This document shows, piece after piece, positions 849 to 39,870 of a stretch of DNA of 39,870 bases (the stretch's first letter is position 1; each line of letters opens with the position of its first letter). The DNA is from a virus. The position numbers were made by a program, and so were the translations under genes. The stretch lies in the IMG/VR virus record IMGVR_UViG_3300013674_000001, positions 1-39,870 of that record. The stretch is one strand, 5' to 3'. The notes under the pieces were generated by a model. The model had not been told where the DNA came from. It ran no database searches and was given only the letters and a program-made list of their open reading frames with translations.

Positions 849-3524
849 CTACGGTTGTTTTGTTGTCGATAGCGCTCCCGTGTCATCGACCGTAATAAGC
901 CAGCGACTGCTGTCGGGCGAAGTCAAGATAACGCCTTGTGTAAAGTCGACCGCTTCGGTAACCGCATTTTCAGTTGCTGCGCTGTTAGCGGCCAAACCGT
1001 AACACCATTGCTGCCTTGCATTGACCAGAAGTTGCGACAAGTCGCGGTGAATTAAGAAATGGTCAGGCGTGAATGTTCTAAACTCAGACCCGGCAAGCTG
1101 CCCCATTGTCTGAATTTCAACACTGTCAAAATTCGTGACCGAAATGGGGACATCAATGTCGTTGAACTCATCATTTGCACCCCCTGCTTCACGATAAGCG
1201 CCGACAACGGCTGTTGTATTTGCCGATTGATGCGGCTGAAAGCTGAACAGGAAATCGACGTCGCCAGTGATTGTATAGTCGCCCGATCCGGTCCCAAAGC
1301 TGATCCAATTATCGACGCGCGCCACGGTGGCGGGGGCGGTAAACGTCCGGAAGTCTCCCACGTCTGTAGGGCGCACCGTCACATCGGAGGGCGCCCCCAC
1401 AAGCGTAATGTCGATCAGCAAATCATCGCCAGAAACGCGGCTTTCGTAGCCAATCGTTACATTAACTGTCCTGTTACCATGCAGGGGGCCTAGAAAAACA
1501 TCACGTGAAACCGTCTGACGAGCGACTGCAACGTTGGTATCTGGAAGCGTAACATCAACAAACCCAGATCCTTGAGTGTCAGTGCCGCCAACCAAAATAT
1601 CAATGTCAAGTTGCAAGGTTCGGGAGGTGTTTGTCGCTCCAGTTGGAAACCTCGTTGCTGTAAATGTTGCAACACTTCCTGACGCCGTGCTGATAACTTC
1701 TGTTCCCGCTGTCCGAGTCAAGAAAGTGAAAACGTTTGTTTGAGTTTGATCTACAGTTGACGCCGGAGTGTAGTTATTGACCTGGATGCGGCCGCCGCCG
1801 GTAATCCGGAAGAAGGGGATCGTTTCAGTGGTTCCCCGCAACCACATGAGTGTGTCGTTGCTGGCGCCCGCAACACGGAAACCAAAGCCACGATATGCGC
1901 TTGTTCCCAAACCATCATATCGAACCGTTCCGGATACCGGTATTGAATACGCAACGCCTGACTGCTGGTACCTTGTGCCCCCACCACGATAGTCCGCAAT
2001 ATTTGAATATCCGGGTGCAATCGTAACTGTGGCAACACTGGCCTCTGGATTAAAAATATCCGAAAATGCGGTAAGTTTGTGAACATCAGGGGAGAGCGGA
2101 AACAAAGTAGACATCTTGCCTTCAAGTGTCGAAATTCTCTGTTCATCAAGCTGAAGATTTGCCGAAGCACTGGCAGCAAGACGGCGCCGTAAATCACTAT
2201 TCAACTTAGCTTCTGAGATCGACCCATCGTCAACATTATCCAATGCGTCATAATCGGTGATCGTGTTTAATGTCTGCGTTGATTGCAGGTAAAGGCGAAC
2301 GGTACTACCGGCAGAAAAGTCGTAATCACGGCTGGCAACGTAATCACTTTCACCCCCAAAATTGCCTTCAAAAGTGAAATCCGTAGACATGTTGCCAATC
2401 AGATTAAAGTTTCCAAAAGCATCTTCTTCGTATGCATCAAGCGTTGTTAAAAGCGTTGCGATGGTTGCATTTGTTCCCGCAAACCTAAGCGCAAGGCGCG
2501 CACCGTCGCGATTGGCGGGAACCGCAATAGATCCTTCATCGGTGCTGGCATTCAAATCTGCTGCTGAATAATCCGCTGGGCTGTCATAAATGCGAAACCA
2601 GTGATTTCGATCCTGTGGGCTTCCGTCAAGCTGTTCGCCGCGAATGGTTCTAGTCCGCGTTCCAACGTCTTCTAGGAAAATCTGGCCTTGAAGCGTCAAG
2701 CGTCGGACATCCCCAGCCGCAATCACGAACCAATTGGCGGTGTCCGACCACTGAGTGAAGCTGGCAGCAGACCACACAACCCAATCGTCAGTGTACAGAA
2801 CTTCTCCAAATCTCCCTGAACCATCGGTCGGCGCGTTGACAACCTTGTAAGCGTAGCCTTGTAATACGCCGGATGGTAATGCACCGGTTGACGACGCATC
2901 CCAAGTGGAGGCTTGAAGTTGGATATCGTCAAGCGTGTCACCGGCCGGTGAACCCGCAAGGCGTCCTTCTGCAATAACATTGTAAGACGAAATAACACTC
3001 GAGGTTCGACTGATCTCAAGCGTAACCTGATCACCATGTGCAAGCGTGACATTTGCACGGCCATCAATCTGTGGTGCTGGCGAAAGACGCGGAACGACTC
3101 GTAAACGGTTGTTCGTCACGGTCTCTCCGGCCAAACCGCCCAAATAACTGATTGTTATTCTGTAGAGCTCTGGCAATCCTTCAGTTGAAAGCTGATCAAA
3201 GATGGTTCCCAAAACGGTTTCGCCTGGCAGCGTGAAGGTTCGCAAGCCATTTGCCTGACCAGCGGCGCCTTGCAAGTGTCGGTTGGCTTGCCCATTAAAC
3301 CATTCTGAAAGGTTAGAGTTCTGCGCAGAGTAATCACCGGTGAAAGCAAATATCGGGGCGCCGATCCCAGTTGCGTCAATCCGATCAAGAGCGGTTTGAA
3401 CATCCGACGATCCGTTTATCAAGCCAGTTTGGTTTGTACTGGCGTTCACGATTTGGCTGGCGTCGGCCAACTCGCCTGTTATAGAGGCTATGGGAAATGG
3501 AATTAGGCGCGGATTACTAACCAT
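849..3524 (-). CDS. Tail fibre / tailspike-like protein, 891 aa
   Basis: Long uninterrupted ORF, rich in T/S/G/N/D as in beta-rich receptor-binding proteins. Its start ATG overlaps the stop of the upstream fibre gene (ATGGTTAG). Sits at the distal end of the virion module. Confidence 0.7.
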   Translation of the reverse strand: MVSNPRLIPFPIASITGELADASQIVNASTNQTGLINGSSDVQTALDRIDATGIGAPIFAFTGDYSAQNSNLSEWFNGQANRHLQGAAGQANGLRTFTLPGETVLGTIFDQLSTEGLPELYRITISYLGGLAGETVTNNRLRVVPRLSPAPQIDGRANVTLAHGDQVTLEISRTSSVISSYNVIAEGRLAGSPAGDTLDDIQLQASTWDASSTGALPSGVLQGYAYKVVNAPTDGSGRFGEVLYTDDWVVWSAASFTQWSDTANWFVIAAGDVRRLTLQGQIFLEDVGTRTRTIRGEQLDGSPQDRNHWFRIYDSPADYSAADLNASTDEGSIAVPANRDGARLALRFAGTNATIATLLTTLDAYEEDAFGNFNLIGNMSTDFTFEGNFGGESDYVASRDYDFSAGSTVRLYLQSTQTLNTITDYDALDNVDDGSISEAKLNSDLRRRLAASASANLQLDEQRISTLEGKMSTLFPLSPDVHKLTAFSDIFNPEASVATVTIAPGYSNIADYRGGGTRYQQSGVAYSIPVSGTVRYDGLGTSAYRGFGFRVAGASNDTLMWLRGTTETIPFFRITGGGRIQVNNYTPASTVDQTQTNVFTFLTRTAGTEVISTASGSVATFTATRFPTGATNTSRTLQLDIDILVGGTDTQGSGFVDVTLPDTNVAVARQTVSRDVFLGPLHGNRTVNVTIGYESRVSGDDLLIDITLVGAPSDVTVRPTDVGDFRTFTAPATVARVDNWISFGTGSGDYTITGDVDFLFSFQPHQSANTTAVVGAYREAGGANDEFNDIDVPISVTNFDSVEIQTMGQLAGSEFRTFTPDHFLIHRDLSQLLVNARQQWCYGLAANSAATENAVTEAVDFTQGVILTSPDSSRWLITVDDTGALSTTKQP

Positions 3525-5262
3525 GGGTCACCCTAAATTCGAACGTTCCGGTCTGGCCGCTGTTGTTCTGCTGGGTTAGCAGGTCATATGCTTGGCCGTT
3601 GATTGTGCGTGCGGAGGCTGTGCGCGTCCATGTTGACAGTGTTTCCTGATTAAACGCCGTCTCTACAATGCTGGTGATTGGGCGATCGGTTGGTTCCAGA
3701 ATGCCGATAAATTCTGTTGCAGGCCAAGATCCGCTAATCGTGTAAGTCGATCCTGCCGGCTGCACATCTACGGATGTCAGTAATGAAGTAGCAACCGTGG
3801 CAAAATCATTCGTTGGACGCACGCCATAATACGCCTGTTCATCAGCCGCAACGGCGCGCACCGTGACTATCTGGGAGTTTGACATGATGGTTTGACCGCC
3901 TGTTGTGGTGGCTCGAATCTGAAATGTCACGGTTCCCGCGCTGCTGGTGTCGATACCGGAAAGAAGGACTGTTGCGGTCTGCGCACCGTCTGCACTTGGA
4001 ACCGTCAGGGATAAGTCGTTGCCATCCGTGATAATCAGGTTCATGGAGGCGATTTGCGATGTCTGTGCAGTGGTGAAGGAAATCGTACGGGACTGGTTAA
4101 TGTCCGTTCCAATATCAACGGTAGCAGGCAGGTTGATGCTGAATCCGGTAATGGATGCACCTGGCTGCGGGACACCACCTGTTACCGTTGCGTCTATAAA
4201 GCCATCTGTATCGTCGTAGGCAAACGAAATACCGTTATGGGTTCCGCCTGTGAACATTGCAGCAACAATGTCTTGGATGCTTTCTGTAGTGGGAACAGCT
4301 GATGAAAACGCCAGATCTCTAAACTCGCCGCGCTGAACCGAGCCGACTAGGTAGGGGAATCCCGTAGTGTTTCCCAAGAACGAAACGTTATCGGCCTCAA
4401 CCAGAACCGTGACCTGATCGCCCGTTAACTGCCTGAATGGACTATCCGGGAACGATATGGTGTTATCGCCCAGCGTGAAATTATATCCTCCCGATCCATC
4501 AAGGACAGCAGCTTTGCTTGGCAAATATTTGATGACTCCTTGATTGCCAGTGGCATAGCTTACTGTCACTCGCACATTTGTCATGGTTGCCGCAGTTCGA
4601 AACTTGAACGCATTTGTCTGCGCATCAAGCGTCACCGTATAGTTCATTGATAGCGGGTTTGTGGTGATTGTTTCCGTATCAATGGCCTGAAGTGTGAAAT
4701 CGTTTTCTGCTTCCGTCAGGTAGAATTGGCGCGGAGGATTGCTTGCAGCCGTAGGTCTGGACCTGGCGTCAATAAGATCGAAACGAACATCTGGAAACTG
4801 ACTGTTGCTCAAACGCAGAAAGCTGTTGGCCTCGTGCAGTGTGGAAATATCGCCGATGCGCAGACTATCAGCCTCAAAGCCCGTATCGCCTGGCATAAGA
4901 AGCTCACCACTGGAAAGCATTCTTATGCCACTGTCGGTAAATTCTGTTCGGGCTGTGTTTAGAATGGGAATGCGGTCAGCGGGTACGTTTGTAATGGGAA
5001 GCCCCATACCATCGGCACCGTCTGCACCCGCAGGTCCTTGAATAATTGGGGTGGCAATTTCCCATTGTGAACCATCCCAAAGATACCATGTGGAGGTAGC
5101 AGTAACATTTACAAGAGTTTGATTTTCTAAAAGTTGATTGGGATTGGAAGTTGTCCACAAATCTCTAGCCGCAATGTCAACAAACGGAGAATCAGCCGGA
5201 ACAACAAAACCGAAGCCGCCTCCACTTCCTCCCAGCCCCCTTGCGTCAATAATCTGAACCAT
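3517..5262 (-). CDS. Tail fibre-like protein, 581 aa
   Basis: Long ORF with a short collagen-like run, GPAGADGADGMG, near the N-terminus and T/S/N-rich composition. Translationally coupled to the 891-aa gene. Confidence 0.65.
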   Translation of the reverse strand: MVQIIDARGLGGSGGGFGFVVPADSPFVDIAARDLWTTSNPNQLLENQTLVNVTATSTWYLWDGSQWEIATPIIQGPAGADGADGMGLPITNVPADRIPILNTARTEFTDSGIRMLSSGELLMPGDTGFEADSLRIGDISTLHEANSFLRLSNSQFPDVRFDLIDARSRPTAASNPPRQFYLTEAENDFTLQAIDTETITTNPLSMNYTVTLDAQTNAFKFRTAATMTNVRVTVSYATGNQGVIKYLPSKAAVLDGSGGYNFTLGDNTISFPDSPFRQLTGDQVTVLVEADNVSFLGNTTGFPYLVGSVQRGEFRDLAFSSAVPTTESIQDIVAAMFTGGTHNGISFAYDDTDGFIDATVTGGVPQPGASITGFSINLPATVDIGTDINQSRTISFTTAQTSQIASMNLIITDGNDLSLTVPSADGAQTATVLLSGIDTSSAGTVTFQIRATTTGGQTIMSNSQIVTVRAVAADEQAYYGVRPTNDFATVATSLLTSVDVQPAGSTYTISGSWPATEFIGILEPTDRPITSIVETAFNQETLSTWTRTASARTINGQAYDLLTQQNNSGQTGTFEFRVTHG

Positions 5263-5271
5263 CCTGAACCC

Positions 5272-5547
5272 CTATGTTGCAATCGTCATTGCTACGACAA
5301 GACCAGCAGAGCCCCGCAGATAGAGCCCTTCACCGTTCTGTAGGATAAATCCCCTATCGCGATAGTTTTCGTTAATCATGCCCATTTGGCTGAGATTGTG
5401 ACCCGCAAGGCTTTCTGCGGGTGTTGTGGTATCAATCGCCCAATCTATATCTTTGCCTTGCGGTGTAAGAACAATGTTGGTGTTGTTTGCTGTCGCGCTA
5501 TGCGCAAGCTGCCAAACTTCCGTCAGTATGATGTCTACTGTTGCCAT
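5272..5547 (-). CDS. Hypothetical virion-module protein, 91 aa
   Basis: ATG 5547 preceded by AAGGGG (aaggggcgtcaaacATG). Stop lies 9 nt before the start of the 581-aa fibre gene. Confidence 0.65.
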   Translation of the reverse strand: MATVDIILTEVWQLAHSATANNTNIVLTPQGKDIDWAIDTTTPAESLAGHNLSQMGMINENYRDRGFILQNGEGLYLRGSAGLVVAMTIAT

Positions 5548-5687
5548 GTTTGACGCCCCTTACAAAGAAACAGTCAAGCATGGAAATCCGCTATTGACGC
5601 TCAGATTGCATTCAATTGGAATAAGCATTGCGTGACCCTTAATTCGAATGATTGCCGCCCTATGGTCACGCATTGGGGTGGTGATCT

Positions 5688-5722
5688 GGGGCCGCGACTT
5701 GCCGACACAAGGACGCGGCCCC
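5688..5722 (-). terminator. GC-rich hairpin downstream of the lysis cassette (possible terminator)
   Basis: GGGGCCGCG (5688..5696) pairs with CGCGGCCCC (5714..5722). An inner CTTG/CAAG extension is possible. No clear U-tract on either strand, so function is uncertain. Confidence 0.35.
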
Positions 5723-8559: not shown

Positions 8560-10227
8560 TTACGGATGGTTTGCATTAGCAGTCCCCGATTGAGCCGCAA
8601 TTTGGCCAGCGTTTTGCATTAACCATGTGGAAAAAACTTGGTTAAAAGCTTTTACATCTTCTGGTCCTTCTGGTCTTGCCATCCCGCGCATGAGTGCCGA
8701 TGCGATTTTTGCGTTCCGACGCTGCATCCTGTTTACAACAGCTCTCCCCGCTGCGCCCGCAGCAATGCCAGTGCCAGTAAGCGCCAAACCGCCCACAGCA
8801 AAAAGAGGGTTGCCCGATGCGGCTGCAGAAATTGTTCCTACGGCTGCTGGACCCGCGCTGGCGGCTCCAGAGATTGCGCCAGTAGGGGCAAATTTTCCTA
8901 TTTTGGTTGCAATATTCTCAGGCAAGCCACCTGTCGCGATGCGCTCAATAATTGCTTTCTGGTCTGCGCTAAGGCCCTGCACACCCTTTTTCCCGTCCTC
9001 TATGTCTTTGAGAATTTTACTGAATTTCTTGCGAATTTCATCATCAAACCCAAGGGTACGAGATTTTCTTGCGTCTATTTCAGCTTTTCGAATTGTAGTT
9101 TCGATCAGGTTTCCGCGCATAGCAGCCGTATAGAGTTTGTTAGCCTCCGCAAGTTGAGGCAAAAGGCCGCTTGTAAAATTGTCATAAGACTTGAGCATCT
9201 GAACACCAATTCGGGCTTCAGAAGGATCTGTACTTGCCGCAATGCGCTGAAAGTTGCGGCGCAGCTTGAGCATTTGCTTTGGTGTCAAGTTTTCCGCGTC
9301 CGCCAGCTCAGAAGCCAATTTGTAACCAGACTTTACCTTTGGCATATCGGCCGCAATCTTTCCGTTGATTAGAAGGCCCTCATTGTCGGCAATCGCAATC
9401 AGGTCGTTAGACATTTGCGAAACCTGTTCCCTCGTGGCCGTCAATCCTTCACGCTCTGCGGCGTCATACAATTCACCCGCAGCTTTTTTGAGAGATCCCT
9501 TTTCGGGGGTGTCTCGAATAGCTCGGTTTACAATTCTCTTATAGGCGCTCTTGTCCGCAGCTTTAAGTCCAGCTTGAGCTCCCGTCGCACCAAACCCCGC
9601 ACCAGCAAGAGACGCAGCAAGTTGCGCAGTTACACTATCTGGGAAATATTCGGTAGCCGCTTGAGCAGCGGTGCCAGATCCAATGTCGGCCGCCAAATCT
9701 GTCAATGCAACGGCGCCCGCACGAGCAGGAACGCTAGCAAGTGCAATTGGAGCAGCCACAGCACCGGCCCCCACTTCCTGACCAACACGACGAGCAAAGC
9801 GTTGGGGGCTGGTTTGCGGTTCAATTTCCGTAACAAGTCCCGCAGCTTGCGCCGCTTGGCTCAGGGATTCAGATCCACCCAATGGTGCCCTTCCGGTTTC
9901 CGCAGTAATTTCAGCGCGTGTTTTCAGGTTGGCACCAGTCGCTTTGTTAACGCCTTTGACGATTAAATCCTGCGACCAATTGGAGAAATCAACAGGGGCT
10001 CCCAGTATCGTCAGAATGCCCTCGTTGAGACCTGAGCCAAGTTGCTCAAGAAAGGAAGTCTCTTCGGGCGTAAACTGGTCGGCCTCTACAGGAGCCTCCA
10101 CCTGAGTTGCTGTCGCAGGGGGCTGAAATTCTGCAAACCGCTTCATCAAATCGGACGCAGGTGCAGCTTCCGCAGGCGCAGCCTGAAACGCCCTGAATCT
10201 TTCCAGAAGTTCTTTTTCGTTTGCCAT
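8560..10227 (-). CDS. Internal virion / ejection protein, 555 aa (positional analogue of P22 gp16/gp20)
   Basis: Ala/Gly/Gln-rich helical protein with a C-terminal Gly/Ala-rich hydrophobic region. Last of three consecutive large genes downstream of the gp10-like hub gene. Confidence 0.6.
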   Translation of the reverse strand: MANEKELLERFRAFQAAPAEAAPASDLMKRFAEFQPPATATQVEAPVEADQFTPEETSFLEQLGSGLNEGILTILGAPVDFSNWSQDLIVKGVNKATGANLKTRAEITAETGRAPLGGSESLSQAAQAAGLVTEIEPQTSPQRFARRVGQEVGAGAVAAPIALASVPARAGAVALTDLAADIGSGTAAQAATEYFPDSVTAQLAASLAGAGFGATGAQAGLKAADKSAYKRIVNRAIRDTPEKGSLKKAAGELYDAAEREGLTATREQVSQMSNDLIAIADNEGLLINGKIAADMPKVKSGYKLASELADAENLTPKQMLKLRRNFQRIAASTDPSEARIGVQMLKSYDNFTSGLLPQLAEANKLYTAAMRGNLIETTIRKAEIDARKSRTLGFDDEIRKKFSKILKDIEDGKKGVQGLSADQKAIIERIATGGLPENIATKIGKFAPTGAISGAASAGPAAVGTISAAASGNPLFAVGGLALTGTGIAAGAAGRAVVNRMQRRNAKIASALMRGMARPEGPEDVKAFNQVFSTWLMQNAGQIAAQSGTANANHP

Positions 10228-10235
10228 GCTGCCCC

Positions 10236-12296
10236 CTAGTTAAAGCTGTCGTTGATGGACTTTTGTTCCTCGGGCGTGAGAGATTCAAACCATTGAGCAA
10301 TTTGCTGCGGCGACATATCCGGTCGCTCCCTTTGAAGTCCCGCAAATGCTGACGGGGACAAAACAGGCGCACCCTGGTCGATCTTCTGACCCAGAACGCT
10401 TTCCGCCATTTCATTCGGGTTAACGAGCCCACCAGACGCAATGCCAAGAGAGTTTGCGTAAGCTTCTCGAAGTTGCCTCTTGAATGCAATGGTGGCGGCG
10501 TCATCTCCCACGCTTGCAAAATATGTATTGGTAACTCGATCAATTTCTGGCTGAGTTGCGGCCGCGCCTGTTTGAATGCGCAAAACACCTTCAGCCCATG
10601 CATTTTTGGCGGCATTGTATTGGCGCCCAGCAGGGGTATTGAAAAAATTACCAATATCACCACCTTGCGTCGCAAGGAACTGCGCAATTGAAGCGGGATC
10701 AAATCCGCCCTGCTCCAATGTATCAAATACGGGCTGTGCACTAGCCATTTGAGCGCCGAAGAGCGCCATTTGACTCTGACGCTCTGTCAGTTTGATTGCT
10801 TCTCCCGTGGGAACATTTACCGTAACACCTGCGCCACCAATAGCAGATATGCGCCCCTCTGGGGACTGTTGATAAGTTTTGGTTTCATCATATCCGACAC
10901 CTAAAAGGCGCTCTGCCTCTTCCGGGGAAAGGACCGTATAGGATGGATCGTCCTTGATGCTGTCGGCAATGGCAGATTGAATTGCTAGCGCGCCTTGCTC
11001 GGGGGGCACAATGCCCCTATCAATATCGCTTTGAAGGTCCGTTATGGTTTGGCCAAGGTCACTTGCTGGCTGCCCTGCTTGCGCGCGCGCTTCAAGTTGC
11101 CTTTCATATTCAGAAACAACAAAATCTTTGATTTCATCAGACACTCCTGGCGACGCCAAGAGAGATGCCACTTGTTGCTGGGTAATCTGCTGAGGTTGAG
11201 GCTGTTGTTGCGCTCCTTGCGCGAAAATTTGAGCCTCGCGCAATCTGCGATCCTCGTTAATACCCTCGTTATCTGAACCCAAAGCCGCAATTGCTTGCGC
11301 CGTTGCCTGAATGTCGCCCGTCCTCGCAACGCTCGCAACCCTTTGAGGCAGTTCCCCGTAGTTGTAGGTGATACTGTCAAGCGCGGCCTGTTGCTGCGGT
11401 GAAAAGCTATCATATACTTCTGCGCCAACCGCAGCACGGGCACGCGGTTTGAACTCCGTCTGAACGCGGCGAACCAAGTCTCTTTCTGCGTCCTCTCGCG
11501 TAACGCGGGTTCCTTCCGTAACCTGGATAACGCGGCCATCTTCGGTTGTGATTGTATCTGATCCATATCCGGTACGCAGTGCGTTTACATCGAAATAAGG
11601 AGTTTCACGGAATCCCTCAAACTCACGGATGAGAGCAAGTGAAGGATCATCTGTTCCAGGATCAAAAACCTGTCCAATAAGGCGCTCCCCAGCACGTTGC
11701 TGCTGTTCAGCCAATCGCCTCTGGCCTGTCGCCTCTTCTTGTGCCAATACAAGCCTTAAGGCTTCGGGGTTTCTGGCCGCCAGTTCAGCGCGCGCCGCAA
11801 GTCTTTCCTGCTGCGTAGGTGCAGGCAATGCCTTAAGTGTCGCGTCTCCCGTCATGGCTGTTTTCTGGGCCTGCAGGTCGATTTCATCAGCGGACAGTCC
11901 CGACATACGCAGAAGCTCGGTTGCGTCCCCCCCTTGGCGCTGCACTTCGCTTGCACGTTCAAGGATAATCTTCTGCTTTTCCGATGGGCTCTTGGCAGCA
12001 AGAATGCGGCGCGAGGTATCAATGCCCACCTGAGCCTCCTGACGTGCCTGATTAATCAGGGTGGGGTTGCGCTGGCCGTTAAGCTGCTGAATCCTTGAGG
12101 CCAAATCCGGGGCGATCCTTTGAAGAAACCCACCGGCGTTTTTCTCTGGCACTGCGGGAAGTCCACTTGCCTGACGCACCAGATTGGTGAGTTCGCGTTG
12201 CTCTCGGCGCTCCCTTGCCTGCTCAATGGCCGGTCCAAATGCTTCCCCCAAATCGATAGCAAGGGACCGACCGTCGAGATTTGCCAGTGTGACCAT
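10236..12296 (-). CDS. Internal virion / ejection protein with embedded lysozyme (GH24-like) domain, 686 aa
   Basis: Central segment LIREFEGFRETPYFDVNALRTGYGSDT...QQQAALDSITYNYG matches the phage lysozyme E-x-EG...Y.D...TxGYG signature (about 11223..11645). Flanks are Q/A/E-rich and helical. SD AAGGAAAG. Confidence 0.8.
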   Translation of the reverse strand: MVTLANLDGRSLAIDLGEAFGPAIEQARERREQRELTNLVRQASGLPAVPEKNAGGFLQRIAPDLASRIQQLNGQRNPTLINQARQEAQVGIDTSRRILAAKSPSEKQKIILERASEVQRQGGDATELLRMSGLSADEIDLQAQKTAMTGDATLKALPAPTQQERLAARAELAARNPEALRLVLAQEEATGQRRLAEQQQRAGERLIGQVFDPGTDDPSLALIREFEGFRETPYFDVNALRTGYGSDTITTEDGRVIQVTEGTRVTREDAERDLVRRVQTEFKPRARAAVGAEVYDSFSPQQQAALDSITYNYGELPQRVASVARTGDIQATAQAIAALGSDNEGINEDRRLREAQIFAQGAQQQPQPQQITQQQVASLLASPGVSDEIKDFVVSEYERQLEARAQAGQPASDLGQTITDLQSDIDRGIVPPEQGALAIQSAIADSIKDDPSYTVLSPEEAERLLGVGYDETKTYQQSPEGRISAIGGAGVTVNVPTGEAIKLTERQSQMALFGAQMASAQPVFDTLEQGGFDPASIAQFLATQGGDIGNFFNTPAGRQYNAAKNAWAEGVLRIQTGAAATQPEIDRVTNTYFASVGDDAATIAFKRQLREAYANSLGIASGGLVNPNEMAESVLGQKIDQGAPVLSPSAFAGLQRERPDMSPQQIAQWFESLTPEEQKSINDSFN

Positions 12297-16626: not shown

Positions 16627-17907
16627 TTATGCGGTCCCAAATGCCTGCCCAGCGAAGAAGGGGTTTAAGACCGCATATGCAGGTCTAAAATCAAATCTCA
16701 CCATCTGCTGGTTTTCGCGGAAGCTGGTACCTTTTGAGACACGGAATTGCAGACCATCTTCTGTGGTTGCAATGGTGTCTGTCGAGTACAGCTTCTTGAT
16801 CGGTACGGAACCGATTGCGAACGCCTGTTTGTGCCAGAACAAGTTTGGCTGATAGGTGGTGGACTGCGCGCCGAGAATGGTCACAACGTCATTGTCCGCG
16901 ATTGCACTGTCGACCGTGTTGTAGGCGCCAGTCGCCTCGTTGATCGCAGGACCAGAGACCACCAGAGTGCCCGCACCGGCTGCCAGCGTCACATCAGAAG
17001 TCACCACGCCGGTCCAGACAACGTTGTTGCCCTGATCGTCGATGATTGCCTGACGTGTGGACAAGTTCAGTCGATTGCGCCCGGTGACCTGGATCATGGT
17101 CCCCGCCGGAATGGTCGGCGTGCCAGTGAAGCCATCGACAGCAATGCTCTGCGTCATTGTGTCTTTGGCAGTCAGGTATGTGCCATCTGGCGTACCGTTT
17201 ACCGCACCAACAAGGTCGCCCCCATAGCTGGGAGCAGTGTAGCTTGCCAGAGTGGTCGCGGTCATGACATCCATGCCAGCGAAGTTGCGGGCAATTGTCG
17301 CCATGGTGTGGGCATCGTAGATCAGATCCCCGGCTTCACCACCTGCGCCCAGCGAGCGCTGATTGCTTGCCAGACTACGCTGGGTATACGGGTTAACCGC
17401 ATAGTACCACATGCCGTCCATGGGAACGCCGTGCGATTGCATCACCGATCCGGCAAGTGCAACCTCGTCCCATGTGTTGACCGCTTGGCCGTGCGTGCCA
17501 GCCAAGAGGCCGGAATTGCGCATCATGAAACCAGCAAAGTCTAGCTCCAGATCGGTCACAATCCGTGTCGCCATGGGCGCCAAGAGTTTGTCGATCTGAT
17601 CCATTTCGACCGCTTCGGCTGCTTCGTTAAAGTTGACTTCCACAGTGAAGTAGTCTTGGATGGTACCAGTTGCCTTACCGGTGATAATGTCCGACGCAGT
17701 AGTGCCCGAAACGTCACCTGTAGCAGTCCGCACCGAACGGTAGTCAGTCGGGCGTTTGAAGTCCACGTTACTGCCAGTGTCAGGACGGAAACGCCCTTCC
17801 AAAAGCTGTGTGTCAACGTTTTTAGACATGACCCTGGCGGTCTCGAATTTCTCCAAAAATACGCGCGCCAGGTATCGCGTAAAGTTACTGTCAAAGTTGT
17901 TGGCCAT
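16627..17907 (-). CDS. Major capsid (coat) protein, P22 gp5-like family, 426 aa
   Basis: Position after the scaffold gene, size (P22 coat is 430 aa), SD TAAGGA, followed by a strong terminator. The C-terminal PNLFWHKQAFAIGSVP-type segment is typical of the P22-coat family. Confidence 0.85.
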   Translation of the reverse strand: MANNFDSNFTRYLARVFLEKFETARVMSKNVDTQLLEGRFRPDTGSNVDFKRPTDYRSVRTATGDVSGTTASDIITGKATGTIQDYFTVEVNFNEAAEAVEMDQIDKLLAPMATRIVTDLELDFAGFMMRNSGLLAGTHGQAVNTWDEVALAGSVMQSHGVPMDGMWYYAVNPYTQRSLASNQRSLGAGGEAGDLIYDAHTMATIARNFAGMDVMTATTLASYTAPSYGGDLVGAVNGTPDGTYLTAKDTMTQSIAVDGFTGTPTIPAGTMIQVTGRNRLNLSTRQAIIDDQGNNVVWTGVVTSDVTLAAGAGTLVVSGPAINEATGAYNTVDSAIADNDVVTILGAQSTTYQPNLFWHKQAFAIGSVPIKKLYSTDTIATTEDGLQFRVSKGTSFRENQQMVRFDFRPAYAVLNPFFAGQAFGTA

Positions 17908-17919
17908 AGCCGTGAGTCC

Positions 17920-18855
17920 TTACTCGAAGGTCGCACCCTTGGGGCCGCGCTGGCGTCTTCTGGTGCCAGCGCCGCCGCCCCTTTGATCCCTGTCAGGATC
18001 GGGCGCGGGTTTGTCTTTCGACTTGGGCCGCGCAACAAGCTTGGCTTCAAGTCTACCCAGTTCGAGGACGCCTTTCACGGGATTGGATTCAATCAAGCCT
18101 TTCAGGTCTTCTGCTTTTCCCGGATTCTTTCCGAGCCAGTACAAAATCACTTCCGACTTGTCCGAATTAGAAATCAACTGGTTGACCACTTCGTGACCAA
18201 GAATGCCAATGGCGTTGTCTTCGGTGTCGTCATAGTCGGGAACTTTCAACGCATCGGCACGGCGGTAATGGTCTTCTTGCCGACCACGTAGCTTGCCTTG
18301 CGTTTCTGTTTCCGTCCGAACCTGTTTCTGCGACTCTTGAGCTTTGGCCAGAACCCCGGCTGCTACGTGATCCTGAAATGCCTTCACGTATGCGGGATCT
18401 GCAATCCCATCGTCAAAGTCATTTGGATCAGGAGGCGCGTCTTTCTTTGATGCGTCCCCATTTTGGTTATCAAGCGCGATTTGCAACAATCTGTTGCGTT
18501 CTCGCTCGACTTCCAGCAGTCCTTCGGCTTCGGTTTTGCCCTCGTTCGCCGCGTCCACCTTTCGGTTTAGCTTGTTGATCCTCTTTCGGATTCCGCGATC
18601 ATCGTCCTTCGGGTGCGACCCGCCGTCACCATCGAGCGCAATCTCGAACTCTTCCTCGTCGTCGCCTTCACCAGATGAGCTATCATCGTTAGTGTCATCG
18701 TCGCCATCTTCAGCGTCGGTGTCGTCATCCTGATCCTCATTCAGAAGATCCTCGCGGGTGATTTCACCATCGCCGTCATCATCTTTGGTTTTATCCTCAA
18801 TGATGAGGGATTCGTCGTTATCTTGCTCTTTGAGTGCCGTTTCAGCTTTCGACAT
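17920..18855 (-). CDS. Scaffolding protein, 311 aa
   Basis: Lies between portal and coat. Highly acidic N-terminal region (DDDTDAEDGDDDTNDD...EGDDEEEFE), helical middle and a basic C-terminus. Size matches P22 gp8 (303 aa). Confidence 0.75.
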   Translation of the reverse strand: MSKAETALKEQDNDESLIIEDKTKDDDGDGEITREDLLNEDQDDDTDAEDGDDDTNDDSSSGEGDDEEEFEIALDGDGGSHPKDDDRGIRKRINKLNRKVDAANEGKTEAEGLLEVERERNRLLQIALDNQNGDASKKDAPPDPNDFDDGIADPAYVKAFQDHVAAGVLAKAQESQKQVRTETETQGKLRGRQEDHYRRADALKVPDYDDTEDNAIGILGHEVVNQLISNSDKSEVILYWLGKNPGKAEDLKGLIESNPVKGVLELGRLEAKLVARPKSKDKPAPDPDRDQRGGGAGTRRRQRGPKGATFE

Positions 18856-24768: not shown

Positions 24769-25464
24769 CTATGCAAACGCTAGTGTTTTGTGAAAACTTG
24801 CGTCAGTGATATTAGAAATGGCATGCCTTCCAATATATTCCGAATAAGCGGGAGGAATAGCTTCTGACATTTCCGCCAAAGTCGCCCAATTCATGCCCAT
24901 TGCTTCGGACGCAGCGGCCTTGTGGCCGCCCTCCCAAACATCACGCGTACGTCGGCCCCCAGCGCTTGCCGCCCGCTTTCGTGCGTGGCCTCCATACACA
25001 CCAATTACCGGCCTATTGTCGTGATTGCACTTGGGCTGAGGTATATGAAAATTTGCCTCAAATAGCCGGTGACGCCTCAATTGACAGCCTTGGGCACCAA
25101 GGCCAAACATCGATCCGCATAAAAGAACTGGATCTCGAAGAGCCCATGAAGCTTGCTCAACATTTTCAATAACCCAAGGAACCTCTGAAGGCATTCTTTC
25201 CCTAACCGAGTCAATCAAAAGAGGTGCCCCAATAGCACCAGGGGCGTGACGCATTACCGAATATCCCTGACACGGGGGGGACGCCCATATAAAGTCAAAT
25301 CCAGAAAGGTCAAATTCCAAAGCATCCGCTTGGTGAAATTCAAATGGGTATCTCTTTTGATGGACCCAATCCACGCCAACAACTTCAAAACCCGCGCGGC
25401 TCAATCCAACACTTGCACCACCCGCGCAGCAAAACAAATCAAGTGCTTTAAATTTCCTACTCAT
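24769..25464 (-). CDS. DNA (cytosine-5)-methyltransferase, compact, 231 aa
   Basis: Motif [14 protein letters not shown], motif [11 protein letters not shown], motif VI VIENV, motif [13 protein letters not shown]-terminal [12 protein letters not shown]. Very short target-recognition region. Confidence 0.9.
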
Positions 25465-30960: not shown

Positions 30961-31266
30961 ATGAACTACAACTTTCCCAAAACACGCACCGCTCTTGCCA
31001 TGCTCGAATCCCTGACATCGCATTATAAAAACCAAGAAGCGGATAGAGTGCTGGCAGATGCAAGGAAAGAGGTATCCGCCTTTGAAGAACCGCTTTTGGA
31101 TCTGGTCGAAAAGTACCTTGAAGAATCCGAAATGGGAGAAAGCTACTTCGGTGTGAAAGCGTGCGGCAATTCCAACTTCGTAAAACGCCTTCGTGATGGG
31201 GGCTCTTTTCACTCTGAGACAGTGGATATCGTGCGATCTTTCATCGCTGATCGACTGAATGCTTAA
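30961..31266 (+). CDS. Hypothetical protein, 101 aa
   Basis: Track ORF 30832..31266 trimmed to ATG 30961, preceded by CCAACCAAAGGAAttgta. The longer form would run through the hairpin at 30913..30934. Confidence 0.7.
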   Translation: MNYNFPKTRTALAMLESLTSHYKNQEADRVLADARKEVSAFEEPLLDLVEKYLEESEMGESYFGVKACGNSNFVKRLRDGGSFHSETVDIVRSFIADRLNA

Positions 31267-31642
31267 GCGAAAAACACCACTTAAGAGAACCGGGTTCAAG
31301 TCAAAGCCGAAACCTATGCGCCGCGTGAGCGCCAAACGTCAAAAGCACTGGAAAAGCCCCGAGGGAAAAGCCGAATTGGAATACATGCGTCTCGTCAAGA
31401 CGCTTCCATGCTGCATATGCGGACACCCCGGACCCTCCGACGCACACCACTGTATCCATAACAGATTTGGCTCAAGAAAAAGATCTGGGTATGATTGCAT
31501 ACCTCTTTGCAAGCCGCATCATCAGGACGGACCGGAAGCCATTCACAACGGCAAAGAAAACTGGCACCGAAAGCACGGACCCGACTATAATTACATAGAA
31601 GAGACCCGAAAAAAGGTTGACATTATACGCAGCCGCAAATAG
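31259..31642 (+). CDS. HNH-type nuclease, Ref/DUF968-like, 127 aa
   Basis: Basic N-terminus, then LPCCICGHPGPSDAHHCIH...CIPLCKPHHQDGPEAIHNG (a Cys4 plus HH arrangement as in P1 Ref-like HNH proteins). Family assignment is from memory. Confidence 0.55.
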   Translation: MLKRKTPLKRTGFKSKPKPMRRVSAKRQKHWKSPEGKAELEYMRLVKTLPCCICGHPGPSDAHHCIHNRFGSRKRSGYDCIPLCKPHHQDGPEAIHNGKENWHRKHGPDYNYIEETRKKVDIIRSRK

Positions 31643-32602: not shown

Positions 32603-32799
32603 CCTCCCCCACCCCTTTCGACGCACATGTACGCAGTAACGAGTTAGCGTCAGAGGCCACTCCCCGGCCCCGGCAGATGGAAGGTCTGCGTTTTAGATCC
32701 TTTGACATGCGCTGGTGGCAAGGGCCGCCCCGGAAGCAGGACAGGGCAGTAAAATGGATCATTTTGGCGGCAATTATTGTGGGGGCTATTTGGGTATGA
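32599..32799 (+). CDS. Hypothetical protein with C-terminal TM segment, 66 aa
   Basis: ATGA overlaps at both ends. C-terminus WIILAAIIVGAIWV. Confidence 0.6.
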   Translation: MTSPTPFDAHVRSNELASEATPRPRQMEGLRFRSFDMRWWQGPPRKQDRAVKWIILAAIIVGAIWV

Positions 32800-33338
32800 G
32801 TAAACAATCAAAAATCACTTCAAAAGAACTAAAAAAACTGCTTCACTACGATCCGAGCACTGGCGAGTTCACCTGGATCGTAACGCAAGGTTCAGCCAAT
32901 GTGGGCGACAAGGCCGGTACTATTGCTGGCCAAGGTTACTTACAAATTTGCATAAACCGGAAACGATACCTAACACACCGATTGGCGTGGTTATACATTC
33001 ACGGTCTCTGGCCCAAAAACTCTATCGATCACATAGATGGGAATCCTGTCAACAATAAGATTTCCAATCTAAGAGAGGCAACTCATTCGCAAAATTGCCA
33101 GAACCGAGGAATGACGGCCTCCAACACGTCTGGATACTGCGGCGTGTCTCTCACCAAGGATAGAAAAAAATGGAGGGCTCAAATTCGTATTCAAGGCCAG
33201 AAGAAATACCTTGGAACATTCGACACGCCGCAGCAAGCGCATGAAGCGTATTGCGAAGCAGGACAGAAGCACCACGGAAGGTTCTTTAACTCCGGTGAGC
33301 CCAAAGCCCTCAAAACCGAAGGGGGTAGCGATGTCTAA
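32796..33338 (+). CDS. HNH-AP2 homing endonuclease (second copy), 180 aa
   Basis: Track ORF trimmed to ATG 32796 (ATGA overlap). IDHIDGNPVNNKISNLREATHSQN followed by SGYCGVSLTKDRKKWRAQIRIQGQKKYLGTFDTPQQAHEAY. The N-terminus MSKQSKITSKELKKLLHYDPSTGEFTW parallels the copy at 15927..16481. Confidence 0.9.
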   Translation: MSKQSKITSKELKKLLHYDPSTGEFTWIVTQGSANVGDKAGTIAGQGYLQICINRKRYLTHRLAWLYIHGLWPKNSIDHIDGNPVNNKISNLREATHSQNCQNRGMTASNTSGYCGVSLTKDRKKWRAQIRIQGQKKYLGTFDTPQQAHEAYCEAGQKHHGRFFNSGEPKALKTEGGSDV

Positions 33339-37393: not shown

Positions 37394-38431
37394 ATGGGGT
37401 TCAACGTCCTTCAAGGCGACGTGTTCGACATGCTGGCCACGCTGCCAGATGACCACTTTGATTGCGTCGTCACCTCTCCGCCTTATTGGGGCCTGCGCGA
37501 TTACGGTGTTAAAGGGCAAATCGGGCTTGAGCCTACACTTGCCGAACACCTTGAGGTGATGGTTCGCGTGTTTGCCGAGGTGCATCGCGTCCTAAAGCCC
37601 ACCGGCACATGCTGGGTCAATTACGGGGATTGCTACGCCACCACTCCTAACGGGCGCAGCGCCGCCGACACAAAGGCCGCAGGTGGTGATGATCGGACGT
37701 TCAGGGACAAGCCGTTTTCGACCATTCAGGGCGTCCTGAAACCCAAGGACCTTGTGATGGCTCCGAACCGCTTTGCCATCGCCATGCAGGAATGGGGGTG
37801 GTGGGTCCGCTCCGAAATCATCTGGGCAAAGCCGAACCCGATGCCCGAAAGCGTGACCGACAGACCGGCTACGGCGCACGAAAAGATATTCATGTTCACG
37901 AAAGAGGGGCGGTACGACTACGACCCGCAAGCGGTGCGTGTCGGGCGGAAATCAGATGAAGACGCAAACGGTTTTCGTGGAGGATCATACGTAGGCGGCA
38001 AGCCCGGTGTCCGTACCGCTGTTGGGAACAAGAAGACCGACAAACAACGCGGCCATTCACGCCGTCATGCTGGTTTCAATGACAGCTGGGACGACATGCC
38101 CAAGGAAGAACAGCAATCCAACGGCCGGAATCTACGCAACTACGAACCCGCCCCCGTACAGGTCTGGGAAATCGCCACACGGCCCTTCAAGGAAGCCCAC
38201 TTTGCGACGTTCCCGCCCGAACTGGTTGAGCGCTGCCTGAAGGCGGGATGTCCGTCTGGCGGCAAGGTTTTGGACCCGTTCGGCGGAGCCGGAACAACCG
38301 GACTTGTCGCGGATCGCCTGCAGATGGACGCCACCCTGATCGAACTAAACCACGAATACGCAGACATCGCCATAAAACGCATCGATAGCGACCGGGGTGC
38401 CTTATTGGAAGCGATGGAGAAAACCACATGA
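37394..38431 (+). CDS. DNA methyltransferase, N4/N6 (beta-class, SPPY motif), 345 aa
   Basis: Motif IV DCVVTSPPYWGLRDYG near the N-terminus. The AdoMet motif VLDPFGGAGTTG near the C-terminus gives the beta-class order. SD GGAGGG. Confidence 0.9.
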   Translation: MGFNVLQGDVFDMLATLPDDHFDCVVTSPPYWGLRDYGVKGQIGLEPTLAEHLEVMVRVFAEVHRVLKPTGTCWVNYGDCYATTPNGRSAADTKAAGGDDRTFRDKPFSTIQGVLKPKDLVMAPNRFAIAMQEWGWWVRSEIIWAKPNPMPESVTDRPATAHEKIFMFTKEGRYDYDPQAVRVGRKSDEDANGFRGGSYVGGKPGVRTAVGNKKTDKQRGHSRRHAGFNDSWDDMPKEEQQSNGRNLRNYEPAPVQVWEIATRPFKEAHFATFPPELVERCLKAGCPSGGKVLDPFGGAGTTGLVADRLQMDATLIELNHEYADIAIKRIDSDRGALLEAMEKTT

Positions 38432-38517
38432 AACCCATCATCATAGACGCCCTGACACTATTGGGAATTGCTGCGATGGTTTACGCGGCCTTGTGGCTGC
38501 CGTTGTTGTTTAAGTGA
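38428..38517 (+). CDS. Tiny membrane peptide, 29 aa (below the ORF-track cutoff)
   Basis: Hand translation: MKPIIIDALTLLGIAAMVYAALWLPLLFK. ATGA overlap with the methyltransferase stop. Confidence 0.35.
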   Translation: MKPIIIDALTLLGIAAMVYAALWLPLLFK

Positions 38518-38528
38518 GGTAATCCGAC

Positions 38529-38750
38529 ATGAAAAGACGGTCATTTATCACAGGAGCTCTGGCTGCGCCTCTTATTGTAAAAACTCCCGGAATCTTGATG
38601 CCAGTGAAAAAGATCATTCATGCAGGTCCAGAAGTTTTGATTGATGATTTTTCTAAATTTGATGCTGCTTTCACTAGGCATCTTGCTAGAACATTCTTGC
38701 AAAAATTTGAGATAGCTAGAGCCGTTGGTCCTATAACCAATGAGCGATGA
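38529..38750 (+). CDS. Low-GC 73-aa ORF: Tat-like signal fused to a copy of the coat N-arm
   Basis: The N-terminus MKRRSFITGALAAPLIV resembles a twin-arginine signal. The C-terminus FDAAFTRHLARTFLQKFEIARAV aligns with coat residues FDSNFTRYLARVFLEKFETARVM (15/21 identical by eye). AT-rich with rare codons (agg, aga, ata). Confidence 0.55.
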   Translation: MKRRSFITGALAAPLIVKTPGILMPVKKIIHAGPEVLIDDFSKFDAAFTRHLARTFLQKFEIARAVGPITNER

Positions 38751-39246
38751 CGGCAGAAATATCATTCGAGCGCGGTGGGACGGTGCTACGTTTCACCCCG
38801 CTGGCAACATAGCTATCGAGAAATCCCGCAAGCTTGCCGATGGGGAGTTTCTTGGAATTGAGCTGTTGCGTGATCGATCCATGAACTCCCATCGTCACCA
38901 GTTTGCCGAAATCAAAAACCTTTGGATGAATATACCCGAAGACCTACAGAATATGCCCTACGCAGCAACGCCTGAGACGTTTAGGAAGCATGCTTTACTT
39001 GTCTGCGGGTACTATGACGTAGAAACGATCGCTTGCGCCAACCCTGGCGCCGCTGAGCGAGCCGCAGCCCTATTGTCCCGACTGGCTACCAGGTCACACG
39101 GCTATGCGGTCACAGATGTTAAGGAAAATGTGGCGCGCTGCTACACGCCTAAGAGTCAGTCTGTGAAAGCCATGGGGTCAGCAGATTTCCAAAAGTCCAA
39201 GACTGCGGTGCTTGATTGGTGTGCGTCTATCGTAAGCCCAGAATAG
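38740..39246 (+). CDS. NinB/Orf- or DUF1367-like protein, 168 aa
   Basis: FLGIELLRDRSMNSHRHQFAEIKNLW resembles the RS..QN+..WA motif of lambda NinB/DUF1367-type proteins, and a later S.S...M....F segment also fits. Family assignment is tentative. Confidence 0.65.
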   Translation: MSDDGRNIIRARWDGATFHPAGNIAIEKSRKLADGEFLGIELLRDRSMNSHRHQFAEIKNLWMNIPEDLQNMPYAATPETFRKHALLVCGYYDVETIACANPGAAERAAALLSRLATRSHGYAVTDVKENVARCYTPKSQSVKAMGSADFQKSKTAVLDWCASIVSPE

Positions 39247-39247
39247 A

Positions 39248-39436
39248 TTACTTTCTCTCTTCCAGTATGGTTTCAACAGCCACCATTCTTTCCTTGAGAT
39301 CTTGAAGCGCTGCAAGGATTTCCTTGTTTGGGTCTTCCTTGGCTTTGTTGCCGCGTAGGTTCCACAATAGCCAAACTCCGAAAGCTACTGGTAATCCATA
39401 GGTTGCAACGATACCGTTTAGAATTTCAGTCGGCAC
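39248..39436 (-). CDS. Single-pass membrane protein, 62 aa (holin-like topology)
   Basis: N-terminal TM GIVATYGLPVAFGVWLLW and a charged helical C-terminus. Last gene of the minus-strand late operon. Its stop is 1 nt from the stop of the convergent plus-strand gene. Confidence 0.65.
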   Translation of the reverse strand: MPTEILNGIVATYGLPVAFGVWLLWNLRGNKAKEDPNKEILAALQDLKERMVAVETILEERK

Positions 39437-39863
39437 GTGTTATGGCCTCCACGAAAAGCCACATATGCAAGGGGAGAAAGAAGAGACTGGCGTAAAGTCC
39501 GACAACCACAACGCCCCCGGTGAATACTGCTGAATATGACAGCAAAATAAAATTTAGGCAAAACAGAAACGAACCTACCGAAACCATCCAACTCCTGATT
39601 GGTTTGAGCAGACCAACTATAATCATGGACGACGAAGCCATTGTAAGCGCGGCCCACATGGCGGCCGGAAACATGTACGCAAACCGTCCCCACGTTTCTT
39701 CGGCGAATCCTTGCGATTCCGTCATACTGTCAATCCAGAACAAACATCCGATAATGAAAAGGGAAACCTGCATTGCAACCCACAATGGCCGATACCTGTC
39801 TAGCCCATTGCAAGCCACCCACCCTTTACCGAATATCCTAGAAACCATCAGCTTACCCATCAT
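39426..39863 (-). CDS. Multi-pass membrane protein, 145 aa
   Basis: About four hydrophobic segments (e.g. LWVAMQVSLFIIGCLFWI, SFLFCLNFILLSYSAVFTGGVVVVGLYASLFFLPLHMWLF). The 5' end lies inside the terminal repeat. Confidence 0.7.
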   Translation of the reverse strand: MMGKLMVSRIFGKGWVACNGLDRYRPLWVAMQVSLFIIGCLFWIDSMTESQGFAEETWGRFAYMFPAAMWAALTMASSSMIIVGLLKPIRSWMVSVGSFLFCLNFILLSYSAVFTGGVVVVGLYASLFFLPLHMWLFVEAITRAD

Positions 39864-39870
39864 TTCCCAT
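39744..39870. repeat. Terminal direct repeat, copy 2 (identical to 1..127)
   Basis: See the copy at 1..127. Confidence 0.95.

Follow-up and report, generated by a model that had tools for sequence, protein, structure and literature searches.

In phage P22, the C-terminal coat-binding region of the scaffolding protein docks on the coat protein's N-terminal arm (N-arm), which, once expansion has taken place, lies packed against the neighbouring P-domain (PMC9962691). In phage 80alpha, the C-terminal helix-and-hook of the scaffold lies on the N-arm helix of the coat, and the satellite SaPI1 encodes a protein, CpmB, that copies the capsid-binding C-terminus of the helper scaffold (PMC5644958). 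A small phage gene that reuses the same contact from the coat side is described here. It is located in a 39,870-nucleotide stretch of viral DNA (IMG/VR record IMGVR_UViG_3300013674_000001, positions 1 to 39,870), hereafter the window, and is an open reading frame (ORF) of 73 amino acids (aa) on the plus strand (38529..38750, stop codon included), which starts with ATG and consists of a leader, a linker and a helix resembling the coat N-arm. The gene is one member of a large unnamed family, in which the pairing of the tail with the resident capsid protein recurs and is not a one-off. Similarly to CpmB, the ORF product is a small accessory protein reusing a head-assembly interface at the coat N-arm/scaffold contact. 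CpmB, however, is scaffold-side, satellite-encoded, free of an export-type leader and redirects capsid size, whereas the ORF is coat-side and phage-encoded; it does not share the helix-and-hook of the CpmB type and resembles the coat N-arm instead. The original prediction for this ORF, made by a model from the DNA letters alone, had named the coat N-arm as the scaffold docking site of P22, in agreement with the published work on P22 (PMC9962691) and also on 80alpha (PMC5644958).

Other described systems resemble single parts of this architecture. T4 Spackle (PMC7677548) is also a small phage protein, equipped with an export signal, and it acts on a virion protein from the same type of phage by binding to it, but it is not derived from its target, the tail lysozyme, which it binds in the periplasm. 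Polymorphic toxin systems (PMC3482391), an example of families in which a conserved N-terminal trafficking module carries swapped C-terminal cassettes, resemble the family in that one unchanging N-terminal address precedes C-terminal modules of great diversity, with paralogues in tandem and traces of exchanged cassettes; in contrast to them, the family tails are virion-protein fragments where recognisable, and the proteins are tiny (53–178 aa) and phage-encoded. The signals of the twin-arginine translocation (Tat) pathway, represented by PF10518 and TIGR01409, are similar to the family leader in the N-terminal RRxFL, in a short core of mild hydrophobicity with much Ala, Gly and Pro, and in the basic residue that frequently follows this core. 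The family leader differs from them in a very short n-region, no AxA, an additional nearly invariant TPGLLMPV[KR][PA] block and its conservation as a whole unit across hundreds of unrelated passengers.

The tail of the ORF (residues 43–66, KFDAAFTRHLARTFLQKFEIARAV; 38655..38726, plus strand) was homologous to residues 4–27 of the coat protein, that is, to the N-arm helix (17827..17898, minus strand). The coat (major capsid) gene encodes 426 aa and is of the P22 type, with a full-length match to PF11651 (P22_CoatProtein, E = 1.3e-52) and a match to phrog_283 (E = 5e-65). Its coordinates (16627..17907) had been given correctly by the original prediction, but the gene was found on the minus strand. 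The ungapped alignment of ORF residues 42–66 with coat residues 3–27 contained 15 identities in a core of 21 residues, as had been counted by eye, and 15 of 24–25 overall. The BLOSUM62 local score of 80 was reached by 0 of 5000 shuffled ORF sequences (mean 27.3, standard deviation 4.1, maximum 50). In a second shuffle test the tail gave z = 13.3 with its own coat and z < 1.4 with seven other capsid proteins. An hhalign comparison of the ORF and its two nearest relatives with 64 coat proteins yielded P = 2.7e-5 at coat positions 4–27, and a hidden Markov model (HMM) built from 63 coats alone (the one of the window and 62 relatives) detected the ORF tail among 189 family tails with E = 1.6e-5, again at profile positions 4–27. 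A chance or compositional similarity between tail and coat was ruled out by the shuffles and the specificity matrix.

When the ORF was compared with all six-frame ORFs of the window of at least 50 aa, the hits besides its own frame were the coat (80) and the portal (60), all others, the scaffold frame included, scoring 35 or less. The portal alignment was a long, low-identity one between helical sequences rich in Ala, Glu and Gln, and was rejected as not meaningful. A Pfam E1_4HB match (residues 33–61, E = 6.7e-4, 20 bits against a cut-off of 25) was judged to be a chance helix match. The AlphaFold model of the ORF contained helices at residues 3–12 and 46–65, the latter falling in the N-arm-like stretch with a predicted local distance difference test score (pLDDT) of 75–81, while residues 13–40 had no secondary structure (pLDDT 57–61) and the linker (residues 28–42; 38610..38654, plus strand) was predicted to be unstructured. 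The charged positions of the N-arm were mostly kept in the tail (D, R, R, K, E, R). Neither PF11651 nor phrog_283 matched the ORF, the coat resemblance being confined to profile positions 4–27. Judged from its sequence, the ORF is a fragment-derived mimic and not a coat protein. Its tail has in common with the P22-like N-arm an amphipathic helix of 24 residues, the homologue of coat residues 4–27; unlike the N-arm, it is free-standing on a leader, outside an HK97-fold protein, and is altered at the coat-invariant positions S4, N5 and SKNV.

The DNA of the matched stretch was identical at 42 of 72 nucleotides, and the same codon was used for only 4 of the 15 identical residues. The ORF had a G+C content (GC) of 0.40, or 0.28 at third codon positions (GC3), against 0.555 and 0.64 for the coat gene. 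These values bear out the earlier statement that the ORF is not a recent internal duplication. The coat subfamily comprised 450 relatives in IMG/VR, 80 of which were retrieved; in the 45 with a readable N-terminus, the N-arm was highly conserved (consensus NFDSNFTRKLA[RK]VFLEKFESxRVLSKNV). Since the ORF tail was no nearer to its own coat than to the coats of these relatives and differed at the coat-invariant positions, it is an old copy that has diverged in function and reached the window from a phage with this coat subfamily, not a fresh duplicate. The same tail type, with the pattern F-x3-L-x-R-x2-L-x6-R-x-hydrophobic, occurred only in two other proteins, P0009 (77 aa) and P0027 (86 aa), at 40–46% identity. 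No further members of this tail type were obtained with a profile of P0001, P0009 and P0027, and the metagenome scan gave other tail types only. The P0009 gene is located between a RusA-like gene and a methylase gene, and the P0027 gene at a replication–packaging boundary, on a contig that ends before any capsid gene.

A word-indexed search with the ORF protein returned only the protein itself, whereas an exhaustive HMMER search of 1.84 billion representatives gave 29 more matches, 28 of which were small proteins (53–117 aa) alike only in the first ~27 residues; the remaining one, P0022, a repeat protein of 530 aa, was left out of the family. A profile search extended the family to at least 1021 small metagenomic proteins, all of them unnamed and free of Pfam domains. 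The pattern TPG[LI][LI]MP[VI] was found in 51 IMG/VR loci and a related leader pattern in 32 metagenome loci and in 8 loci among 185,579 species genomes, all eight being metagenome-assembled genomes (MAGs) of Alphaproteobacteria. Five separate contigs with leader genes (L060, L062–L065) belonged to one MAG, Rhodomicrobium sp. JBAUNL01; they may be phage contigs binned with their host, which hints at the host range. No match to the ORF, its region or the consensus leader was detected in 50,697 records of cultured phages. The ORF fits the family in size and setting, with 73 aa, a tail of 47 residues and a phage genome around it, the other members being ~50–180 aa long with variable tails. As homologues are complete genes of 53–178 aa, the alternative that the ORF is the truncated 5' end of a longer gene was rejected.

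No family catalogued in Pfam, PHROGs, NCBIfam, PADLOC or PDB corresponded to the ORF or to its combination of leader and tail, and no description in the literature was found, so that the earlier remark on the lack of a described function still holds. No solved structure matching the ORF was found. PADLOC-DB contained no match to the ORF, and the scan of 124 members gave one marginal AbiEi match (E = 0.009).

The common part of the family is the leader, which in the ORF corresponds to residues 1–27 (MKRRSFITGALAAPLIVKTPGILMPVK; 38529..38609, plus strand) and contains a twin-arginine motif, a hydrophobic stretch of 12 residues and the TPG-LLMPV-K/R block. The family alignment revealed the motif M-x-R-R-x-F-[LI]-x-G-[LA]-[LI]-A-A-P-x-[VI]-[IV]-x-T-P-G-[LI]-L-M-P-[VI]-[KR] within a few residues of the start codon, with invariant R3, R4, P14, P20 and M24 and nearly invariant F6, G9, A12, A13, I17, T19, G21, L22, L23 and P25. 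The ORF leader carried all five invariant and nine of the ten nearly invariant columns (V in place of I17), and the family profile matched it with 83 bits (E = 1e-17). A logo of 130 distinct canonical leaders showed RR in 130, F in 112 (two residues after RR), L in 107, G in 121, A in 116, A in 125, P in 130 and I in 118; these were followed by T (128), P (130), G (128), L (120), L (127), M (130), P (129), V (116) and K (81) or R (46), and then [P/A]. The consensus of the family reads MxRRxFLxGLLAAPxVIxTPGLLMPV[KR]. The GC of the leader-coding DNA ranged from 0.37 to 0.77 across the family, and because of this range the conservation must be exerted at the level of the peptide. The possibility of a conserved non-coding element misread as an ORF was also rejected, as the leader always begins an ORF, its substitutions are conservative (I/V/L, K/R) and its GC spans the range given above. 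An antisense ORF of 74 aa (38541..38765, minus strand) was considered a mirror-image artefact, similar antisense ORFs occurring in 20 loci only because the leader is conserved.

In contrast to the leader, the tails vary, with a median length of 60 aa and fewer than 20 aa in only 2 of 172. Several tail sub-families were conserved across loci (28–97% identity). When all tails were compared with all ORFs of at least 100 aa from the loci, tails matched the N-terminal region of a protein of 300–430 aa encoded in the same locus. The matched proteins were major head proteins of three unrelated families: phrog_283 (P22-like; the window, L034 and L058), phrog_9953 (L014, L037 and L056) and phrog_371 (Mu gpT-like; L023 and L027). 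In the shuffle matrix, the tails of the window, L014, L023, L034, L037, L056 and L058 matched the capsid of their own locus with z of 7–16. Such tails gave z of 7–19 with their own capsid or its close relatives and z of 2.1 or less with other capsid types. The specificity extended into the P22-like class, in which the window tail had z = 13.3 with its own coat and -0.3 with the coat of L058. Capsid-derived tails were thus present in at least five lineages, and in every informative locus it was the carrier's own capsid family that was matched. Profiles for which capsid proteins alone were used detected 12 of the 189 tails.

The capsid segments matched by the tails, assigned with the P22 coat domain limits of PMC9962691, were always the N-arm (~4–55) or pieces of the P-domain (78–119, 272–301, 336–372) and never the A-domain. 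What the family retains of the capsid fold is exactly its scaffold-facing and inter-capsomer parts; those required for forming capsomers are dropped. The 'mini-coat' members (L034/L036 10001..10474, L058 9998..10477 and P0127) consist of the leader and ~130 residues, and the gene starts right after the stop codon of the large terminase gene. Their tails (L034, L058, P0127) join both halves of the P-domain (capsid ~78–119 and 336–372) and skip the A-domain. A PHROG scan of 124 members gave matches to ten PHROG families, seven of them annotated and all virion-structural, which were distributed over eight members: four matching major head proteins, one the central tail fibre J, two a host-specificity tail protein and one a tail protein. 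The remaining three families are of unknown function. Structural categories make up about one third of the annotated PHROGs, so the virion-structural share of the annotated matches would, judged by plain proportion, be an enrichment.

The commonest tail in IMG/VR was a conserved domain of ~130 aa (PFAYVSGVWLNG...WFDNVASITSYEYTDKNPETNPY), found in L010, L015, L016, L019, L020, L022, L024, L027, L031, L032, L040 and L047. It had no PHROG or PDB match and no Foldseek match in PDB or BFVD; its AlphaFold model had an overall pLDDT of 57, with 71–82 for residues 31–90. Tandem leader genes with unrelated tails were observed in L023 (4969..5247 and 5244..5702) and L053 (9565..10002 and 9992..10273), the first of the two copies in L023 carrying a capsid N-arm mimic.

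The position of family genes was also examined. In L034, L036, L037–L039 and L058 the family gene starts at, or a few bases from, the stop codon of the large terminase gene, and a portal gene lies downstream of it in L034, L036, L037 and L058, with none in the stretches of L038 and L039 examined. In L013/L014 and L050 it is located just upstream of the large terminase gene, and in L056 it precedes the capsid gene by 1.9 kb. The capsid-mimic genes of several lineages therefore belong to the head-morphogenesis module, which ties their function to capsid assembly more than to early host takeover. Apart from these head-module neighbours, no conserved partner gene beside the family gene was found across the lineages.

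In the window, the gene corresponds to a 226-bp AT-rich segment that a close relative, the 27-kb contig L006, lacks, owing to an insertion here or a deletion in L006. The segment (38519..38744, plus strand) is essentially the 73-aa gene and nothing besides, with GC of 0.41 against 0.52–0.57 in the flanks. In L006 the preceding 29-codon gene directly adjoins the NinB-like gene, and the flanks are identical to the window at 81 of 90 and 447 of 507 nucleotides (88–90%). The comparison of the junctions revealed a 4-nt direct repeat, TGAG, at 38515..38518 and 38741..38744 (plus strand); the ATG of the NinB-like gene comes from the 226-bp segment, and the L006 gene starts with GTG. The 73-aa gene is therefore accessory, a cassette of a single gene that was either acquired by the window or lost from L006, because L006 lacks exactly this segment between flanks of 88–90% identity. 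The absence of the AT-rich segment from L006 also fits the original view that the gene looks acquired. That the gene is real, accessory and moves between phages is well supported. The two genomes also differ by a module swap: the window encodes an N6/N4 DNA methylase of 345 aa (37394..38431, plus strand) and L006 an unrelated methylase of 180 aa (1987..2529). The latter has a homologue on the P0009 contig (L007), where its gene is located downstream of the leader gene.

Based on these data, a two-part adaptor is proposed as the best-supported model, still a tentative one, in which a bait for a capsid partner is joined to a membrane or Tat address. As the bait, the ORF tail would present an inner-surface element of the unassembled coat, which would bind the C-terminus of the scaffold or a coat P-domain. 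The scaffold is the presumed target because it is the only partner of the coat N-arm known from model phages. In the window, the scaffolding protein gene (17920..18855, minus strand) lies just upstream of the coat gene and encodes 311 aa with a basic C-terminus (PF09306, E = 1.5e-11; phrog_648, E = 1.3e-23). As the address, the leader would carry the protein and its bound partner to the Tat receptor or the inner membrane of an alphaproteobacterial host. The partner of the leader is most likely a host component, since the leader has been conserved in phages whose capsid systems are not related, and its features make the Tat receptor or the inner membrane the most likely candidate. The net effect would be that a capsid-assembly partner is tethered or removed at the membrane; the purpose could be tuning, localising or nucleating head assembly, removing the scaffold, or interfering with a co-infecting relative of the same coat family.

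The Tat part of this model was considered at two levels. At the level of the family, the leader bears the hallmarks of a Tat signal: the invariant RRxFL and a short core of mild hydrophobicity, in many cases followed by a basic residue. The ORF carries the twin-arginine consensus S/T-R-R-x-F-L-K as K-R-R-S-F-I-T, and TAT_signal matches were obtained in 20 of 29 family members at E < 1, the best with 4e-5. In Tat signals, the c-region contains a basic 'Sec-avoidance' residue and a small-x-small site for signal peptidase. In the c-region of the ORF, K18 is present and T-P-G at residues 19–21 might serve as the site, though it would be an atypical one; 64 of 130 leaders have R or K at logo position 16. 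The Tat-like N-terminus noted in the original prediction is thus upheld, strongly for the family (RR in 130 of 130) and weakly for the ORF alone, which stayed below the Tat thresholds with 11.8 bits against the PF10518 cut-off of 22.7 (E = 0.25) and no match to TIGR01409.

Further observations weigh against the adaptor model. The AxA cleavage site is absent from the leader, and the hydrophobic core is followed by the TPGLLMPV[KR] block, whose conservation goes far beyond that of ordinary signal peptides and hints at recognition of a different kind. It is also paradoxical that a bait for assembly proteins of the cytoplasm should carry a Tat address. On the side of the tail, the partner may not be that of the coat, because the tail is altered at coat-invariant positions and is no nearer to its own coat. 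More than 85% of the family tails have no recognisable source, and the matches to tail fibre, J and host-specificity proteins are not covered by scaffold binding. The window copy is located in an ERF/methylase/NinB operon, outside the head module. Moreover, a leader gene was present within 10 kb in 0 of the 80 loci with related coat genes, and for this reason the 73-aa gene must be dispensable.

According to a rather unlikely alternative, the product acts in the envelope: a cleaved Tat signal would release a mature peptide of ~50 residues in the periplasm or at the outer face of the inner membrane, where it could exclude superinfecting relatives by binding a virion component that enters the periplasm, or, as a cationic amphipathic helix, could affect the envelope itself. 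The invariant RRxF, the signal-like layout and the TAT_signal matches of the 20 members speak for such a factor, together with the amphipathic tail helix of net charge +3 and the patchy, AT-rich, accessory distribution typical of conflict genes. Some tails match the tail-fibre J and host-specificity families, whose products cross the envelope, and T4 Spackle, an early periplasmic protein binding a tail protein (PMC7677548), provides a precedent. Copies of the N-arm and P-domain, however, have no known periplasmic partner, a periplasmic target would hardly account for tails that match the capsid subfamily of their carrier, several lineages have the gene next to the large terminase gene, within the head module, and an AxA-type cleavage motif is missing.

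It is improbable that the tail serves as an immune decoy, mimicking a part of the unassembled coat recognised by a sensor and either blocking the sensor or exporting it through Tat as a hitchhiker. Bacterial defence systems are often triggered by capsid proteins, and Tat is the only pathway known to export folded complexes. The accessory and horizontally moving character of the gene, placed here among early-type genes, the choice of N-arm and P-domain pieces as surfaces exposed only before assembly and the tandem copies with different tails in L023 and L053 are all in line with a decoy. On the other hand, a faithful mimic should trigger the sensor and not block it, and the place of the gene in the head module elsewhere speaks for expression at a late stage, when a pre-emptive decoy would no longer be of use. 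No similarity to PADLOC models or to a known anti-defence protein was detected, and no candidate sensor is known in the uncultured hosts.

Equally improbable is a role as virion cargo, in which the capsid-like tail would be the signal for incorporation into the procapsid and the hydrophobic leader a payload ejected into the envelope of the next host. In the internal proteins of T4, a conserved targeting peptide at the N-terminus is joined to bodies that vary, and the P22 ejection protein gp7 loses an N-terminal leader of 20 residues. A cargo tail has to match the resident capsid system, which it does, only scaffold-facing parts of the fold are kept, and the position by the large terminase gene, with the portal gene downstream in some genomes, suggests co-expression with head genes. 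Still, the conserved part of the family is the leader and not the incorporation signal, a payload of 27 residues would be odd, and the window copy lies outside the late module.

A further variant, to which only a slim chance is given, may be termed 'bait-and-evict': the Tat address and the fragment of the phage's own virion protein would together remove a cytoplasmic binder as a folded 'hitchhiker' complex to, or through, the Tat translocon. The protein captured in this way could belong to host immunity, as a sensor for capsid or tail proteins not yet assembled, or be an assembly partner of a rival phage, and, if true, this would be a new, modular and easily re-targeted strategy of counter-defence or competition. 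The main idea of the original prediction, a soluble cytoplasmic titrator whose N-terminus targets nothing and whose peptide competes with the coat for the scaffold and so times assembly, is very improbable; it draws on the N-arm homology and the known N-arm/scaffold contact, but leaves an RR-invariant leader unexplained across three unrelated capsid families with GC of 0.40–0.67, a pattern that points to a shared host partner. Least probable is the recombination remnant also put forward there, in which only the leader or nothing matters and the tail is a read-through into a captured foreign coat fragment without its own function: the ORF has a foreign composition and the sister phage lacks it, its tail type is restricted to two other proteins, P0009 and P0027, and all copies examined are identical, so that selection on this particular gene is not measurable, but the tail diverged at coat-invariant positions while the helix pattern shared with P0009 and P0027 was kept at 40–46% identity with no loss of frame, the tails of the family are long, open and conserved in sub-families, and capsid-derived tails are found in at least five lineages, always of the resident capsid type.

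The window carries an exact direct repeat of 127 bp (bases 1–127 = 39744–39870), and the contigs L001 and L002 read across the junction; the window is therefore a complete circular assembly, podovirus-like, with a true genome of ~39,743 bp. Eight contigs from several samples carry a protein identical to the 73-aa ORF. The minus strand encodes an O-like replication initiator, a methylase (24769..25464, the second one of the window) and the large terminase, portal, scaffold, coat and tail proteins. The plus-strand block (31.2–39.2 kb) comprises two HNH endonuclease genes (31259..31642 and 32715..33338), ERF, the N6/N4 methylase, the 29-codon hydrophobic ORF, the 73-aa ORF and the NinB-like gene (38740..39246), whose ATG is overlapped by the end of the 73-aa ORF by 11 nt. 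A Shine-Dalgarno-like GAGG (38516..38519, plus strand) is present 9 nt 5' of the ATG of the ORF, and no promoter or terminator of its own was found above background. The early-operon label, judged from the HNH, ERF, methylase and NinB-like neighbours, is plausible.

The 29-codon ORF (38428..38517, plus strand) encodes a hydrophobic peptide, MKPIIIDALTLLGIAAMVYAALWLPLLFK, and its L006 copy is identical at 81 of 90 nucleotides and 25 of 29 aa. It is probably a real small membrane protein, because it is conserved in this relative. Converging on the operon of the 73-aa ORF are the last two genes of the minus-strand late block, 39248..39436, coding for a protein of 62 aa with one hydrophobic segment and a charged helix, and 39426..39863, coding for a protein of 145 aa with several hydrophobic segments. 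Scans of both proteins gave no family match; they may be lysis genes.

The combination of an invariant RR leader with fragments of the carrier's own virion proteins would represent a new kind of phage protein, known here from sequence. If its anatomy predicts its function, phages of Alphaproteobacteria carry modular small proteins in which a fixed address is joined to swappable copies of their own assembly interfaces. If true, this would be a new principle for controlling or sabotaging capsid assembly or for hiding structural proteins from host surveillance, and a natural case in which an interface is mimicked, here the coat side of the coat–scaffold contact. The minimal N-arm and N-arm-plus-P-domain copies would mark the parts of the HK97 fold sufficient for a useful interaction, which is of interest for capsid engineering, and the leader with its TPGLLMPV motif may be an unrecognised sorting or processing signal. 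More than 1000 'hypothetical' metagenomic proteins gain a name, provisionally 'RR-leader / virion-fragment' proteins, and a testable hypothesis.

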